From contig JACZRW010000001.1 in assembly GCA_022574495.1 (NCBI GenBank), positions 1 through 52,549 of the forward strand: DNA of 52,549 bases. Reading direction: 5' to 3'. The position numbers were made by a program, and so were the translations under genes. The notes under the pieces were generated by a model that saw only the letters and a program-made list of their open reading frames with translations, ran no database searches and was not told the origin of the DNA. Origin of the DNA: Patescibacteria group bacterium (GTDB lineage Bacteria > Patescibacteriota > Microgenomatia > Woykebacterales > RBG-16-39-9b). Positions 2,182 to 52,549 of this stretch are shown here, one piece after another (positions within the stretch are counted from its first letter, which is position 1; each line of letters begins with the position of its first letter).

Positions 2182-3546
2182 ATGTCTGATAGAAAGTTAA
2201 TCGCTGGTTCATTTATATTTCTTCTTCTCGTTATTTTGATTGGTTCTATAATTATAGTTAGGGAAAAAGGTTACCTTTCTAGGGAAGAAGAACCCACGTT
2301 TATTAGTTACGTTGGCCTATGGGATCCTGAAATTATTAATCCTCTTAAAATAGAGTATCAGAAGCAAAACCCAGATATTACGATTGAATACGAACAAAAA
2401 AAACCAGAGCTCTATTTTGAAACCTTAAAAAATTTGTTAGCAACGGAAAACCCCCCAGATATTTTTTGGTGGCATTCTGGCTGGGGGCCAATGCTTAATA
2501 ATGATTTATCAGCAATTCCCGAAAGTGTAATTTCAATTCAAGATTACGAAAAAACTTATTTTCCGGTAACCAAGGCTGATGCTAAAATAGGAGGGACATA
2601 TAGAGGGGTTCCTTTAGAAATCGATGGACTGGCTTTAATTTATAATAAAGGTCTGCTTTCTTCAAAAGGCTTCAAGAACCCCCCAAAAACTTGGGCCGAT
2701 CTGCAAAGAACATATATCCCCGCCTTAAATAAATTTGATAAGAAAAAAGGCATATTACAATCCACTATTGCGCTTGGAACCGAAAATAATATTTCGAATT
2801 TTTCAGAGATATTAGGCCTACTTTTTCTTCAAAACGGAGTCACCTTTATTGAGAATGGAGAGATGAAAATACACGATAGCGTGGCTTTAAATAATGATAA
2901 TTTAGGGCAAAAGACATTAGATTTTTACACCAGCTTTACAAAAAAGACCAAGGATTGGGACTCAACTCTCCCAAACTCCATCCGTGCATTTGCGCAGGGT
3001 AAAGTGGCGATGATTATCCTACCTTCACACAAAATCCCCTCACTCCAATCACAGATAAAGGCCACTGGATCTAAAGTAAAATTTGGTGTATCCAGTGTGC
3101 CGCAACCACCAAATGTAGAACCGGTAACGTGGGGAAGTTATTGGCTTTCTGGGGTGTCGGTAAAAAGTAGTAAACAAGGTGAAGCATGGAAATTTATTAA
3201 ATTTTTATCAGAACCAGAAAGCTTGAAAAAGATTTTTGAAAAAGAATCTAAAATCCGAAAAATTGGGCGAGTTTACCCTAGGAAAGATATGAGTAAGGAA
3301 TTGCGCAAAAACGCCTTGTTGGCTCCCTACCAATCTCAAGCTCAATTTGCAAAAAGTTGGTACTTACACTCAGATACTTTTGATGGGGCACTGAACGATG
3401 AAATGATTGAAAAACTTCGTGAACTAGTGTCTAGGATGGCTCAGGGTAAGGGTTCAGCGAAATCAAATTTAAACTCTTTTGCTCCTGAGGCTAAAGAAGT
3501 ATTATCAAAATATGGCGTATTTAGCCCAGAGATAATAGAAAGGTAA
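2182..3546 (+). CDS. Extracellular solute-binding protein (ABC sugar-type, family 1) with an N-terminal membrane anchor
   Basis: 454-aa ORF with an N-terminal TM helix and SBP_bac_1-like motifs (PDIFWWHSGW, GVPLEIDGLALIYNK). Confidence 0.65.
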   Translation: MSDRKLIAGSFIFLLLVILIGSIIIVREKGYLSREEEPTFISYVGLWDPEIINPLKIEYQKQNPDITIEYEQKKPELYFETLKNLLATENPPDIFWWHSGWGPMLNNDLSAIPESVISIQDYEKTYFPVTKADAKIGGTYRGVPLEIDGLALIYNKGLLSSKGFKNPPKTWADLQRTYIPALNKFDKKKGILQSTIALGTENNISNFSEILGLLFLQNGVTFIENGEMKIHDSVALNNDNLGQKTLDFYTSFTKKTKDWDSTLPNSIRAFAQGKVAMIILPSHKIPSLQSQIKATGSKVKFGVSSVPQPPNVEPVTWGSYWLSGVSVKSSKQGEAWKFIKFLSEPESLKKIFEKESKIRKIGRVYPRKDMSKELRKNALLAPYQSQAQFAKSWYLHSDTFDGALNDEMIEKLRELVSRMAQGKGSAKSNLNSFAPEAKEVLSKYGVFSPEIIER

Positions 3547-4050: not shown

Positions 4051-5685
<1,635 letters not shown>

Positions 5686-47887: not shown

Positions 47888-49564
47888 ATGGTCAAAAGAT
47901 TTTTCCGCAACAGTACATCTATTCTTTTCCGACGTCAAAAAACGTTACTTTCTGCTGCAGTGATTATGATGTTTTTGATTTTTGCTTCAAGAGTTTTGGG
48001 GTTAGTGAGAAATTGGTTTTTGGCTGGTACTTTTGGAGCAGGACCAGAGCTGGATGCCTATAATGCTGGATTCGTATTACCAGATCTTATAGCGATTGTT
48101 CTAATAAACGGCGCACTTTCAGTCGCTTTTATACCAATTTTTACAACGTATTTAACTCAAAAAGGGAGTGAAGAAGCGTGGGAGATGGGGTCTTCGGTAT
48201 TAAATTTGTCTTTGCTAGTTTTTCTAGCTTTTGGAATAATAATTTTCTTATTTCCGCAACAATTAAATAGCTTAATCGTTCCAGGGTTAGATCCAGAAAC
48301 TGCCCAAACGGCAGCTAACATGACTAGGATAGTAGCCTTTGGAGAAATATTTTTGGTTATTGGGAGCTTTTTGACAGCAACCCTTCAGAGTTATCATCGA
48401 TTTATCGCTCCAGCCCTTGCGCCGGTTGCATATAATTTGGGGATTATATTTGGAATAGTTTTTTTGAGTAAAGCCTTTGGAATATATGGGGTTGGATTTG
48501 GTGTTGTAATCGGGGCCTTTTTTCACTTTCTCCTGCAGTTTTTAATGGTGAGAAGATTTGGTTATAAGTACTCGTTTAAGCTAGATTTCAAAAACCTTGG
48601 TTTTAGAAAAGTTATTAAATTATCGATTCCTAGATCTGCCGGTATAGGTTTGGCCCAACTTGAGTTAACCGTTAGTATATTTTTAGCCTCACTTCTAGCC
48701 TCTGGCTCTATCGCCATACTTAGGTTTTCTATAGATATTCAAAATCTTCCAATAGCATTGTTTGGGTCTACTATAGCAGTGGCTGCTTTCCCAACCTTAT
48801 CTTCTGAATGGGCTGGAAATAAACTGGAACAATTTAAAGCCACATTCTTATCATCCCTGCATCAAATTCTTTATTTAGCCATACCACTAAGTATTATTTT
48901 CGTTACTCTTAGAATTCCAATCGTCCGTCTGACTTTGGGTAGTGGTCTTTTTGATTGGGAAGATACAGTTGCCACGGCGACAACACTATCTTTCTTTTCC
49001 TTTGGAGTTTTCGCTCAAGCCGGTTTTTTGCTAGTATCGAGAGCGTTTTACTCAATGCATGATACAGTCACCCCACTAAGAGTAGCTCTCGCTAGTTTAG
49101 CGATTCATGTGATTGCCGGGATAATGTTTATGTTGGTATTGAATCTTCCTATCCAGTTTTTAGGGTTAGCGAGTGCAATATCTGGCGTTTTTAGCTTTTT
49201 CGTGCTACTTGCAATTCTAGATCGAAAGCTTGGGGGTTTTGATCGGAGAAAATTATTTATTCCAGTTGTAAAAATTGTGACTTCAGCCTTTGTCATGGCG
49301 GTAATTCTTTATATTCCTTTACACTTTAAGATTGGGGAAAAATACATCATTGATTTTATAATAGATACCACTCGGGCAATTAATTTACTTTTCTTGACGT
49401 TATTTGTGGCTTTCTTTGGATTTGCAATTTATGTTTTGCTTACTTGGTGGTTTAAATCAGAAGAACTGAAAAGTTTCTTAGGTTTAATACCAGATTTTAA
49501 GAAATTTACAAAGGCACTTAATTTTGAAGAAGTTGTAGACACAGACACAACCCCTAAATCATGA
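47888..49564 (+). CDS. murJ: Lipid II flippase MurJ/MviN
   Basis: 558 aa, 14 TM helices. SRVLGLVRN, FGAGPELDAYNAGF, IPRSAG, FPTLS. Confidence 0.85.
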   Translation: MVKRFFRNSTSILFRRQKTLLSAAVIMMFLIFASRVLGLVRNWFLAGTFGAGPELDAYNAGFVLPDLIAIVLINGALSVAFIPIFTTYLTQKGSEEAWEMGSSVLNLSLLVFLAFGIIIFLFPQQLNSLIVPGLDPETAQTAANMTRIVAFGEIFLVIGSFLTATLQSYHRFIAPALAPVAYNLGIIFGIVFLSKAFGIYGVGFGVVIGAFFHFLLQFLMVRRFGYKYSFKLDFKNLGFRKVIKLSIPRSAGIGLAQLELTVSIFLASLLASGSIAILRFSIDIQNLPIALFGSTIAVAAFPTLSSEWAGNKLEQFKATFLSSLHQILYLAIPLSIIFVTLRIPIVRLTLGSGLFDWEDTVATATTLSFFSFGVFAQAGFLLVSRAFYSMHDTVTPLRVALASLAIHVIAGIMFMLVLNLPIQFLGLASAISGVFSFFVLLAILDRKLGGFDRRKLFIPVVKIVTSAFVMAVILYIPLHFKIGEKYIIDFIIDTTRAINLLFLTLFVAFFGFAIYVLLTWWFKSEELKSFLGLIPDFKKFTKALNFEEVVDTDTTPKS

Positions 49565-51339
49565 ACGAGTTAGGAAAAATACGAAATTTTGCGATTTTGG
49601 CCCACATAGATCATGGAAAGTCCACTCTTGCCGATAGATTTTTGGAAATAACAAACACAGTTCCCACTGGAAAACTTATGGAACAGCACTTAGATAGGAT
49701 GGATCTTGAACGTGAAAAGGGGATAACAATAAAGCTGGCGCCAGTCTCCATGAATTGGAAAGGATATAGATTAAATTTAATCGACACTCCTGGTCACGTC
49801 GACTTTACTTATGAAGTATCTAGATCACTGGCGGCGGTTGAAGGAGTACTGTTATTGGTAGATGCTACCCAAGGAATTGAGGCTCAGACCCTTTCAAACT
49901 ACCTTTTATCCAAAGAGCAACGTTTAAATCTTATTCCGATTATTAATAAAATAGATTTGCCAAACGCTCAAGTAGAAAAAGTTAAAAAGTCTATGGTTGA
50001 CACGTTTGGATTTTCTGCAGATGAGATTTTAGAAGTATCAGCAAAAGAAGGTACTGGTATAGAGGAAGTTTTAGATGAAGTTATAAAAAGAATTCCCAAG
50101 CCTTATGGAGACATTAGTAAACCTTCAAGAGCCTTAGTTTTTGATTCAATGTACGACCAGTTTAAAGGGGTGGTTGCCTACGTTCGAGTCTTTGATGGAA
50201 AATTTAAAACCAAAGATAAAATTAAGTTGTTAGGAACGGATACTGAGGCAGAAGCTACTGAAGTAGGCTATTTTTCACCTGCACAGGAAAAGAAAGAGGA
50301 GATTAGCACGGGGGAGATAGGATACTTAGCGACGGGGTTAAAAAACGTCAATAAAGTTTCGGTGGGAGATACAATTACCTCGGCTACCAATCCTACAAGA
50401 GAAGCATTATCTGGGTATAAGCCATTCAAATCGATGGTTTTTGCAGGGATTTTCCCGGTAAATAGAGATGAATTTCCCAAACTTAAAGATGCCTTGGAAA
50501 AGCTGAAGTTGAACGATGCAGCGCTTTTGTACGAACCAGAAAACTCCCCAGCTTTGGGATTTGGGGTACGGGCTGGATTCCTAGGATTACTTCATATGGA
50601 GATTGTTCAGGAAAGGCTTGAGAGAGAATTCGATTTGGAGCTGATAATTACCTCGCCAACAGTAAGTTACAAGATATTGAAGACAGATGGTTCTACCCAA
50701 GAAATATCAAACCCAACCAAACTTCCGGAACAAACTAAAATAAAAGAAATACAAGAACCATGGATAAAAGGTTCTATAGTTACTTTGAATAATTATGTTG
50801 GCCCCATCACCCAACTCGTTCATGATAAAAGAGGACAAGTGGAAAATATGGAGTATTTTTCTGATAAGGTAAAAATTTCGACGAAACAACCACTAGCAGA
50901 AATTGTTTCGGATTTTTACGATCGGCTAAAAACTGTTTCTTCCGGGTTTGCGTCTTTTGATTGGGATTTAGATCAATATAAATCAATTGATGCAGTTAAA
51001 CTGGAGGTATTAGTCGCCAAAGAATCTGTAGACGCACTCTCGCAAATTGTCCCAAAAAAGAATGCCTACAATATTGGTAAGGCTTTGGTTGCAAGACTAA
51101 AAAAAGTGATTCCCCGCCAACAATTTGAAATTTCCTTGCAAGCCGCCATTGGAGGGAAAATAATTGCCGCCGAGCAAATACCACCATTTCGCAAGGATGT
51201 TACTCAGAAGTTGTATGGTGGTGATAGAACCCGCAAGGATAAGCTTTTAGACAAGCAGAAGAAAGGTAAAAGTCGGATGAAAAAAGTTGGTCGAGTCGAG
51301 ATACCGCAAGAGGCTTTCCTTAGTATCTTGAAAGTTTAA
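49561..51339 (+). CDS. lepA: Elongation factor 4 (LepA)
   Basis: [33 protein letters not shown] and the LepA C-terminal domain. 4-nt overlap with murJ. Confidence 0.95.
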
Positions 51340-51371
51340 TAAGCAAAAGCTTGCGTCTACTTCATAGACTA

Positions 51372-51470
51372 AAGCTTTTAGACAAACAAAAAAAGGGAAA
51401 GAGCAGAATGAAGCGGGTTGGGAAGGTTGATACCCCCCAAGAAGCGTTCCTTACGGTGTTAAAAGTATAA
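51372..51470 (+). pseudogene. Orphan divergent copy of the last 32 codons plus stop of lepA
   Basis: [32 protein letters not shown] compared with lep[33 protein letters not shown] (51241-51339). 69 of 99 nt are identical by hand count. Confidence 0.8.
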
Positions 51471-51508
51471 AAATTGACTTTTTTTCGCATTGGATACACA
51501 ATTAAATT

Positions 51509-52075
51509 GTGAATAAAAACTTACTTATCTTAGGAGTTTTACTGTTACTTGTTCTTGGATCTCTTCTTTTTATTTTCAAAGACAGAATTCCTATATTAAA
51601 TAATGATTACACTTTACCTAATAACCTCACTTATTCCCAAGATCCTGGTTGGAGTGATGTCTCAGGGGATGGGTGGACAATATCTTTCAAAAAAGACTGG
51701 AAACTAAGTCCCGTTCTTGATATACAAGGTTCTAAAAGCTATTCAAATAAAGAACAAGGAGATGATCTGATCCTTATTATTGTTAGTCTCCCAGCAGGAG
51801 GTTTTAAAAGTACCATTAAAGAAGAATTGGATGTATGGAAAATAGTGATAGAGACTCCCCAGAGCTCAAGACAATTAATTAAATCCCAGGAGCTGACAAT
51901 TAATGGGTACGAGTCAGGAATCATATTTTCTAAAGTCAAAGACAGAAACACCATCTGGCTCACTGTTTATGTAGATAAAAACGAAATAGTTTACACATTA
52001 GATATTTCCGTTACAGAAAATTTTTATAAATCGAATAAAGCTGATATTGAATACCTTATTTCTAGTTTTAGATAG
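51509..52075 (+). CDS. Hypothetical secreted/anchored protein
   Basis: GTG start, N-terminal hydrophobic helix, no family recognised. Confidence 0.4.
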   Translation: MNKNLLILGVLLLLVLGSLLFIFKDRIPILNNDYTLPNNLTYSQDPGWSDVSGDGWTISFKKDWKLSPVLDIQGSKSYSNKEQGDDLILIIVSLPAGGFKSTIKEELDVWKIVIETPQSSRQLIKSQELTINGYESGIIFSKVKDRNTIWLTVYVDKNEIVYTLDISVTENFYKSNKADIEYLISSFR

Positions 52076-52105
52076 TGTAGTCTAATTCTTAGTTAGGATC
52101 CTATT

Positions 52106-52408
52106 GTGGAAAAGAAACAAAATATTACTAAAATTTTTGGTCTTAGAGATGAAAAAATTAAAGACTATTTAAGAAGCCATCCTGATGTCGCTGAAAGATT
52201 GGCTAATACCCTAATTTCTTTAGAATCACAAAGAAAAAAAGATAATAAATCTGCGTCTGCTATTGGAGCACTAGGTTTGCATGTACACCGAATACCAGAT
52301 AAAGAATTCTTTCACCAACCGAAGCATTTAATTGTGTTTACATTGCTCTTTATATTAATTCTTATTTTTACGGTCACTTTTCTGGCAAGCCTTTTTTATA
52401 ATATTTAA
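52106..52408 (+). CDS. Hypothetical tail-anchored protein
   Basis: GTG-start 100-aa ORF with a C-terminal TM helix. Confidence 0.35.
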   Translation: MEKKQNITKIFGLRDEKIKDYLRSHPDVAERLANTLISLESQRKKDNKSASAIGALGLHVHRIPDKEFFHQPKHLIVFTLLFILILIFTVTFLASLFYNI

Positions 52409-52425
52409 AATTAATTACACTACCC

Positions 52426-52461
52426 TTGACATCATTTAGCACTCATGTTAGAGTGTTGCTA
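52426..52461 (+). promoter_or_regulatory. hrcA promoter overlapped by a CIRCE-like inverted repeat
   Basis: TTGACA (52426-52431)-N17-TAGAGT with TGT extension. TTAGCACTC (52436-52444, perfect CIRCE left arm), then ATGTTA, then GAGTGTTGCTA (degenerate right arm). Confidence 0.45.
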
Positions 52462-52480
52462 CCCAAATTTAGGTTCAATT

Positions 52481-52549
52481 ATGTCTGATATTTCTGATAG
52501 ACAAAAGGAACTTCTCCGAGCAGTAATCGAGGAATACATAAATACCGCC
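52481..52549 (+). CDS. hrcA: Heat-inducible repressor HrcA, first 23 codons (runs off the right edge)
   Basis: MSDISDRQKELLRAVIEEYINTA matches the HrcA N-terminal pattern (.RQ..LL..I...YI.TA) and has a CIRCE-like site upstream. Confidence 0.6.
   Translation, partial: MSDISDRQKELLRAVIEEYINTA

Follow-up and report, generated by a model that had tools for sequence, protein, structure and literature searches.

A second, orphan end of lepA behind a hairpin, and related gene-end doublets in Patescibacteria

The stretch analysed here, hereafter the window, comprises 52,549 nucleotides (nt) from a Patescibacteria group bacterium of the Woykebacterales (assembly GCA_022574495.1, contig JACZRW010000001.1, positions 1 to 52,549 of the forward strand), and carries lepA, the gene for elongation factor 4, close to its right end. 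Behind the intact gene, after a spacer of 32 nt that folds into a hairpin, stands a second, diverged copy of the last 32 codons and stop codon of lepA, which we term the orphan tail, as opposed to the in-use tail of the gene itself. The same hairpin-type arrangement of two ends of one gene, a doublet, recurs in the source genome (G000; 0.93 Mb, 94% complete) at hppA, fba, mreB and nrdJ. We suggest that lepA belongs to a set of hairpin-associated gene-end doublets in which the orphan acts as a homology arm for recombinational exchange, and we would put the probability of this model, taken as a whole, at roughly 0.55.

Two lepA tails and the spacer between them

The features on which the argument rests lie within the last 3 kb of the window:

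49561-51339, plus strand: lepA (elongation factor 4), 592 amino acids, intact, from the list of open reading frames (ORFs)
51241-51339, plus strand: in-use lepA tail, the last 32 codons (K561-V592) and TAA, first repeat copy
51241-51254, plus strand: 14-nt block AAGCTTTTAGACAA, the same as 51372-51385
51345-51352, plus strand: arm AAAAGCTT, reverse complement of the start of the repeated tail and outer stem of an extended hairpin
51353-51371, plus strand: conserved-foot hairpin GCGTCTACTTCATAGACTA, 19 nt, stem GTCTA/TAGAC
51351-51470, plus strand: 39-codon ORF from TTG, from the mechanical ORF list
51372-51470, plus strand: orphan lepA tail, 32 codons and TAA, in a frame different from that of lepA

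The two tails align in register and without gaps at a period of 131 nt, and their homology ends at the stop codon. A first-pass annotation made from the sequence had reported this repeat with 69 of 99 nt identical, 16 synonymous codon differences and six conservative replacements, and our recount agrees, with 11 codons identical and the replacements being K/R, R/K, E/D, I/T, S/T and I/V. By codon position the differences fall 4/4/22; that is, 22 of 30 (73%) lie at third positions (P(>=22 of 30) = 9e-6), and the third positions are identical in only 10 of 32 codons. Among 200,000 random sets of 30 substitutions, none left six or fewer residue changes and no stop, which upholds the annotation's argument that drift of a dead duplicate would not keep frame and residues in this manner. 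The orphan matches Pfam LepA_C (E = 5e-10) and scores almost as a genuine tail does against a profile of relatives' tails (68.9 bits, genome-level E = 4e-19, vs 71.7 bits); it is the only extra piece of lepA in the genome, and just one of its residues is unique to the lineage. Synonymous sites between the tails are saturated. The substitution pattern shows the two copies to be distinct lepA alleles, each shaped as a functional gene end in a lineage of its own, and here too the annotation, which had traced the second copy to a probable different lepA allele evolved under selection, is supported.

LepA residues 4-592 match the lepA of relatives at 72% identity, and close homologues are named elongation factor 4 of Candidatus Woykebacteria in the source databases. 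The amino acids of the in-use tail are the same as in the 95%-identical cluster representative (P0001), and its nucleotides are 90-99% identical across five conspecific or sister contigs. The orphan is untranslated, either a relic or a recombination arm. Nor do we regard the 39-codon ORF as a gene, because its TTG lies inside the hairpin arm, its frame is broken in two conspecific contigs (L160 and L163) and older copies contain stops.

The annotation had further stated that no cargo lies between the copies now. This is correct insofar as the spacer (TAAGCAAAAGCTTGCGTCTACTTCATAGACTA) contains no ORF, yet it overlooks that these 32 nt hold a hairpin of a multi-copy family and an inverted arm. 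The family has the form GCGTY-stem-loop-stem-RACTA with a constant foot, and the orphan starts at the base directly after the hairpin. The genome contains 16 such hairpins, vs 3.5 +/- 2.1 in shuffled genomes, and 8 of a strict form, vs 0.27. Their apical stems vary by compensatory changes (GTCTAC/GTAGAC, GTCCAG/CTGGAC, GTCCCGC/GCGGGAC and GTTCAC/GTGAAC). Together with the first 8 nt of the orphan, the window spacer folds as an extended hairpin at -12.4 kcal/mol (z -2.3), and the corresponding fold in the sister contig L164 reaches -14.8 kcal/mol (z -3.3). No Rfam family matches the spacers of eight loci, and no consensus terminator is found in window positions 51150-52549.

The arm fits the copy in use better than the orphan at hppA, at fba and at the lepA of L238. 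At hppA and fba, the reverse complement of the 12 nt to the left of the foot agrees with the beginning of the in-use copy at 11 of 12 positions, vs 7-8 of 12 for that of the orphan, and a further unit gives 12/12 vs 8/12. In the window both copies open with the identical 14-nt block, which is probably a short conversion tract between them. L164 has AAGCTTTTGCAA at the position of this block, and the spacer arm GCAAAAGCTT complements it at 10 of 12 positions; the same arm is complementary to AAGCTTTTGC, a tail start retained in L164.

The arrangement can be followed in other strains. A search of JGI metagenome contigs with the C-terminal half of lepA as query gave relatives of at most 68% identity among the matches listed; closer relatives were taken from the lepA protein cluster at >=90% identity, which has 14 members, and the contigs of eight of these were examined (L157-L164). 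Six further independent assemblies, from this species or a sister species, are involved (Logan SRR29092999 and SRR28296001; ENA ERZ23499094, ERZ23486746 and ERZ23495036; JGI 3300022665), L157 and L162 being Logan contigs, L158, L160 and L163 ENA contigs and L164 a JGI contig. The order tail, spacer, second tail is found in every contig that reaches far enough, namely L157, L158, L160, L162, L163 and L164, the end of L163 falling inside the second copy. L161 breaks exactly 24 nt after the lepA stop, and L159 has a gap of 100 N from 24 nt after the stop to hrcA; such breaks are expected because co-existing variants diverge there. L159 had at first been considered an empty site (lepA, 128 nt, hrcA) and was rejected as such, since the interval is the 100-N scaffold gap. 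As an aside, lepA of L164 (1036-2797) is called as two genes of 123 and 460 amino acids, with a 17-nt gap relative to the window, which may be a real frameshift or an assembly error.

Doublets at other genes and in other genomes

A gene-end scan compared every ORF end of the source genome with its own surroundings. Genes with orphan ends, all of them housekeeping genes, are the following (differences by codon position):

C58:8573-10687: hppA (H+-pyrophosphatase) with orphan tail; 39-nt spacer; 26/26 amino acids and 58/78 nt identical; differences 2/0/18
C44:4144-5160: fba (class II aldolase) with orphan tail; 35-nt spacer; 52/81 nt identical; differences 6/6/17
C43:5903-7430: SufB gene with orphan tail; 34-nt spacer; 62/87 nt identical; differences 7/0/18; palindrome of a different type
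C44:10440-13141: nrdJ-like (class II ribonucleotide reductase-like) gene with a shorter orphan tail
C57:~4700-5110: mreB orphan, an 8-codon stub between two nested hairpins
C27:1544-2631: trpS, with an orphan head 66 nt upstream

At fba another hairpin lies behind the orphan, and after it a third copy begins, giving two hairpins and three copies. The hppA doublet is present in 5 of 15 genomes of the Woykebacteria family and always starts at the same Lys (KDTAGP...). In these five loci the arm tracks the synonymous variants that the in-use copy has in its own genome (CTGCTGTACCCTT, CCGTATCTTT, GCAGTATCCTT, GCTGTGTCTTT and CGCGGTGTCTTT). The hppA locus of G013 has two units and a truncated third copy, and the hppA orphans of L244 (G009) and L246 (G004) are split by other palindromic inserts of 85-110 nt, which suggests that further hairpin elements can insert freely into relic ends.

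For lepA itself, a profile of the tail was searched across the 292 genomes of the class that have the gene; short stubs escape this search, and its counts are hence lower bounds. A second match occurs in 22 of the 292 genomes, and an orphan downstream on the same strand in at least 19-20 (~7%). Two layouts are seen: doublets with a structured spacer of 32-131 nt, and cases in which 0.5-2.2 kb of cargo lies between lepA and the orphan. The cargo consists of RHH and PIN pairs in three genomes, HicB with HicA, a NUDIX gene, a secreted protein, or RHH with a HigB-like gene followed by a second doublet and BrnT/BrnA; in cargo layouts the toxin stop abuts the first base of the orphan. Pooled over 14 tail/orphan pairs, the differences by codon position are 50/28/194 (71% third-position).

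Where copies are stacked, the hairpin-type arrays of L164, G013 hppA and G000 fba count one hairpin fewer than tails (n tails, n-1 hairpins); the last copy, behind which no hairpin stands, is the most decayed, being truncated or interrupted by stops. Copies within one array start at the same codon. This polarity agrees with a series of events at a single boundary, each displacing the older ends rightward, and not with the duplication of a block made of tail plus hairpin.

Other observations were made at lepA in passing. The f30 doublets (L058, L066, L067 and L069) have a spacer CCGCAGTCCCGYAC... that folds at -26 to -64 kcal/mol, is conserved across genera and has no Rfam match. A motif TATCCYGAGCGWAGKCGARGGA stands directly 5' of short lepA orphans in three families (L072 in G293, L073 in G138, L015 in G004, and L239) and is met elsewhere in the source genome, at C19:12033 and 12460 and at C5:9360-9400, in one case as two inverted copies, and probably represents a second family of junction hairpins. 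In L057 (G162), positions 3248-3541 in the lepA-forward orientation hold a 97-codon ORF in which a NUDIX 5' end is fused, at a GGKI microhomology, to the last ~57 lepA codons, the lepA part being 100% identical to the gene over ~90 nt and then showing 10 synonymous differences in its last 60 nt. Finally, the lepA of G007, G024, G025, G034 and G040 appears as two matching pieces (residues ~4-67 and ~66-592) lying 80-150 nt apart in one open frame, which suggests an in-frame insertion in the GTPase domain.

The islet beside lepA and the possible use of the orphan

To the right of the orphan the window contains (promoter and terminator calls being consensus scans only):

51474-51502, plus strand: promoter-like site TTGACT-17-CACAAT, ahead of the 188-amino-acid ORF
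51509-52408, plus strand: variable islet between orphan and hrcA, with ORFs of 188 amino acids (51509-52075) and 100 amino acids (52106-52408)
52426-52549, plus strand: hrcA promoter (10/12 in the promoter scan) and hrcA start (ATG 52481), forming the right border of the islet and the end of the contig

The islet differs between close strains. In 90-nt bins, lepA of L158-L161 is 96-100% identical to that of the window, yet the orphans of these contigs agree only over the first ~55-65 nt, their 3' halves differing as the downstream genes do. The pair of 188- and 100-amino-acid ORFs stands behind the orphan in the window, L158 and L162, and a pair of 21 and 175 amino acids in L160 (5940-6624); the 175-amino-acid cassette is also found behind the orphan in L238 (3700-4530), a species with 75% lepA identity. 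No Pfam family was found for the ORFs of any variant (188, 100, 21 or 175 amino acids). Alignment of all islet variants resumes at the -35 box of the hrcA promoter, with HrcA-GrpE-DnaK downstream in L158. The islet is absent from the genus-level relatives L236 and L237, in which hrcA follows lepA after gaps of 160 and 113 nt. In L157 a central tract of the orphan is identical to the in-use tail, which indicates gene conversion, and the 14-nt identical block of the window is probably an instance of the opposite direction. The lepA gene is itself a patchwork between lineages (76-98% per 150 nt in L164). On these alignments the orphan is a mosaic, its 3' half being exchanged together with the downstream islet.

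We propose that the lepA doublet goes back to a hairpin-linked event at the Lys-561 codon, in which the gene end was either replaced or duplicated. The hairpin might act as a mobile agent, as a terminator or as a barrier to recombination. From then on, the orphan would have provided homology to a conserved gene just where the lepA-hrcA islet begins on its left, beside DNA that is otherwise unalignable. Incoming DNA of a related lineage could recombine between the orphan, for which the donor's lepA tail would be the partner, and hrcA, thereby swapping the islet; an alternative exchange between the lepA body and the orphan would transfer the unit and any cargo. Every exchange would overwrite part of the orphan from a functional allele, and repeated events would stack older ends to the right, where decay sets in. 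Such overwriting by functional alleles would explain why the orphan looks selected despite saturated synonymous divergence, and would likewise account for its mosaic make-up and for a 3' half that moves together with the genes behind it.

Several points weigh against this proposal. No transfer event has been observed, and the role as a homology arm is deduced from the mosaicism of a few contigs. Every hairpin-type doublet encountered has already fallen to ~70% identity, no young one having been found, and the proposal does not account for how a first doublet arises at each gene. An arm of 96 nt at ~70-80% identity is a poor RecA substrate. L237 has a hairpin after lepA and no recognisable orphan behind it. 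The lepA doublets of other families have different spacers, GC-rich and 75-124 nt long in f30 and with a CCTGAGCGAAGTCGAAGG motif in f9/f31, and one mechanism may hence not cover all doublets. Lastly, the direction is ambiguous, for the working tails of genus-level relatives share the reading MKRVGKVD with the orphan, and their nucleotides are closer to the orphan (72-79% identity) than to the in-use tail (60-76%).

This last comparison answers a question raised by the annotation, which of the two tails matches the lepA of relatives, only in part: it is the orphan that is closer, and this fits both a displaced native end and an orphan overwritten from relatives. The orphan-like tails of relatives, taken with an arm that matches the in-use copy, would suggest that the in-use end is an import; within the species, the data show the orphan to be the copy being rewritten. 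A phylogeny of hppA tails gave third-position identities of 5-16 of 26, which is at the level of noise, and no clade of unit-borne tails. For the founding event, we give about even odds to either copy having been the newcomer.

A more specific mechanism is conceivable, if rather improbable in our view. The doublet may be a protein-less, hairpin-tagged gene-end replacement cassette of Patescibacteria, made of a synonymously recoded spare end of a housekeeping gene, an arm complementary to its own first 8-12 nt and the foot hairpin, which would home into unit-free alleles at a defined codon by means of a trans-acting nuclease or transposase that recognises a hairpin or a sequence. Recoding would protect the new end from recutting or recombinational loss, and toxin-antitoxin pairs and small islets would hitch-hike in the space separating new end and old.

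Also rather improbable is a passive displacement scar, in which the native lepA end gave way, on a single occasion, to an incoming unit of ~131 nt that comprised a recoded tail, an arm and a hairpin; the old end would then be a young, functionless orphan without part in later exchange. Such a scar would account for the better fit of the arm to the in-use copy at hppA, fba and the L238 lepA, for the resemblance between the orphan and the working tails of relatives, and for the decay of distal copies. It is harder to reconcile with synonymous saturation next to a single lineage-unique residue, as a neutral relic of that age should be unrecognisable, and with strains that have 96-100% identical lepA and differ strongly in orphan 3' halves and downstream genes; that the halves differ behind near-identical genes argues that the orphan is being rewritten and is therefore not just decaying.

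That the orphan is itself functional, as a micro-protein (the 39-codon ORF, or 20 codons from an internal ATG) or as a lepA terminator or mRNA-stabilising stem, is improbable by a wide margin. The frame is open in the window, the spacer and the first 8 nt of the orphan fold as described above, and compensatory changes keep the hairpin. The annotation had named a conserved small ORF in relatives as an alternative to its own view, and this was looked for and not borne out: variant B (L160 and L163) has a 1-nt deletion in the A-run of the orphan, the third tail copy of L164 contains an in-frame TGA, the orphan stub of the genus-level relative L239 an in-frame TAA, and the start of the orphan lies anywhere from profile position 1 to 23 among genomes, which truncates it at many different codons. 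Start codon, frame and length of the ORF are thus not conserved among relatives, there is no consistent start codon or ribosome-binding site, and consensus scans give no terminator-like site. A structural role of the first 8-12 nt, moreover, would not need the remaining ~85 nt to stay protein-like.

We consider it hardly likely that slipped misalignment duplicated the tail in situ and that the dead copy then drifted. The head-to-tail copies with their 131-nt period, and the three copies of L164, are what such slippage would leave. Drift, however, would spread changes evenly and break the frame, contrary to the 4/4/22 distribution without any indel; the junction is not a plain one, having an inverted arm and a family hairpin, and no hairpin follows the last copy.

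The scar of a classical integrase-borne element, a prophage or island that inserted at the lepA 3' end with its own replacement end and later lost its cargo by deletion, is about as doubtful. The annotation had recognised in the two tails the footprint of an element or recombination tract that targets the 3' end of the gene; a recombination footprint is supported, and relatives do have cargo between the copies, but an element of the integrase type is not supported. In 20 orphan-bearing genomes no tyrosine recombinase (PF00589) is found on the lepA contig or within ~100 kb of lepA (serine recombinases were not searched for), and the lepA 3' fragment beside an integrase that the annotation proposed to look for was seen in none of them. 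The 14-nt identical block that opens both copies in the window might pass for an attachment core, yet the hppA, fba and sufB doublets have no identical core, and the edges of the orphan vary (profile positions 1-23). The hairpin junction is shared by other genes, beyond the specificity of one integrase, and precise loss of all cargo many times over is implausible. The lepA 3' flank is elsewhere also a classical phage attachment region: 63 matches in IMG/VR are full-length lepA at the edges of proviruses from other phyla, several of which (L171-L180 and L186) start ~100 nt downstream of the lepA stop, their first genes being those for a tyrosine integrase (PF00589) and for ImmA-like and XRE proteins. 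These could be read in favour of an integrase scar, but none of them has an orphan tail.

Mis-assembly of two strain variants of the lepA end in tandem can be practically dismissed, for although strain variants co-occur and two assemblies break or gap at the hairpin (L161 and L159), seven assemblies from different samples and pipelines give the same order of tail, hairpin and orphan, and the same architecture is found in closed or near-closed relatives such as the one-contig G009 (hppA) and G138 (lepA). A diversity-generating retroelement was also considered and rejected, since on inspection the mismatches involve all four bases in both directions and lepA encodes a housekeeping GTPase; reverse transcriptase was not searched for.

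Known systems and what the doublets may mean

Gene-end replacement with displaced orphans is already known from integrative elements, rhs/cdi loci and WHO elements. Of these, integrative elements restoring the 3' end of the gene into which they insert (attachment sites in tRNA, tmRNA or protein genes) resemble the doublets in choosing the 3' end of a conserved gene, bringing a substitute end and leaving a partial duplicate. Unlike them, the doublets have no integrase found near lepA, no constant core, and cargo that is either lacking or a single small module, and their junction is a multi-copy hairpin common to different target genes. In rhs and cdiA toxin genes, recombination in conserved coding sequence installs new 3' ends, and the old ends accumulate downstream as orphans that can recombine back. 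The doublets share with these loci the new 3' ends made by recombination and the orphan ends downstream; the tips of rhs and cdiA, however, are non-homologous toxin domains with immunity genes under diversifying selection, while the ends of a doublet are homologous, equivalent and differ mostly at synonymous sites. Koskiniemi et al. (2014; PMC3967940) provide an example of such toxin genes with orphan tips.

The closest parallel may be the WHO elements at FBA1 of Torulaspora and Lachancea yeasts, in which the fragment that is pushed aside serves as the second stretch of homology and is not required to remain open (Coughlan et al., 2020; PMC7282813). Homing of a WHO unit is driven by the intein-like endonuclease that it encodes, to which the new end confers resistance (PMC7282813). 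In both systems a housekeeping gene receives a new 3' end and the old one is pushed downstream, arrays are youngest next to the gene and decay with age, and the two ends are unusually diverged alleles. By this analogy, the logic of the doublets would be that of WHO elements without an encoded protein: the spacer described here has 32 nt and no ORF, only the family hairpin and inverted arm, with no endonuclease between the ends, and the cargo of relatives consists of toxin-antitoxin pairs or unrelated small genes. The doublet fragments are also shorter (~100 nt vs ~400 bp), and their hosts are bacteria with probable DNA uptake, in contrast to the meiotic diploids that host WHO elements.

The hairpin itself recalls the repetitive extragenic palindromes (REPs) and bacterial interspersed mosaic elements, with their REP-associated tyrosine transposases (RAYT), and the palindromes derived from IS200/IS605 insertion sequences, which are short multi-copy hairpins with a conserved foot and a covarying apical stem just after stop codons. 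Multiple copies, conserved foot and covarying stem are also met in the family of the source genome. A difference is that the Y1 HUH transposase (PF01797) has no match in that genome; it is present in 8 of 17 genomes of the family, with no obvious link to doublets. To our knowledge, REPs do not come with a spare copy of the end of the adjacent gene or with an arm complementary to one. In the literature on lepA attachment sites, on Patescibacteria palindromes and miniature inverted-repeat transposable elements, and on gene-end duplication, we found no description of a protein-less unit of ~130 nt that combines a multi-copy conserved-foot hairpin with a self-complementary arm at Patescibacteria housekeeping genes.

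The genomes of the ultra-small Patescibacteria are streamlined and hold few classical mobile elements, and yet these bacteria exchange genes. If the model of the orphan as a homology arm is true, it would describe a route of gene flow that needs only DNA uptake and homologous recombination, situated beside universally conserved genes, and among the cassettes swapped along it would be toxin-antitoxin modules as well as genes for surface or unknown proteins that are specific to a strain. The hypervariable islets beside genes like lepA would thereby be explained too. For annotation, a simple rule follows: a short ORF that lies directly behind its parent gene and matches LepA_C, an H_PPase end or similar is a relic and not a gene. 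The arm, in covarying with the synonymous variants of its own gene, offers a testable structural signature that may lead to an unknown enzyme or to a template-switch mechanism; should the less probable homing cassette prove true, bacteria would have their own equivalent of WHO elements, and with it a new class of non-autonomous mobile DNA. The layout is, finally, a design principle for the delivery of cassettes into conserved loci of bacteria that are not yet engineerable.

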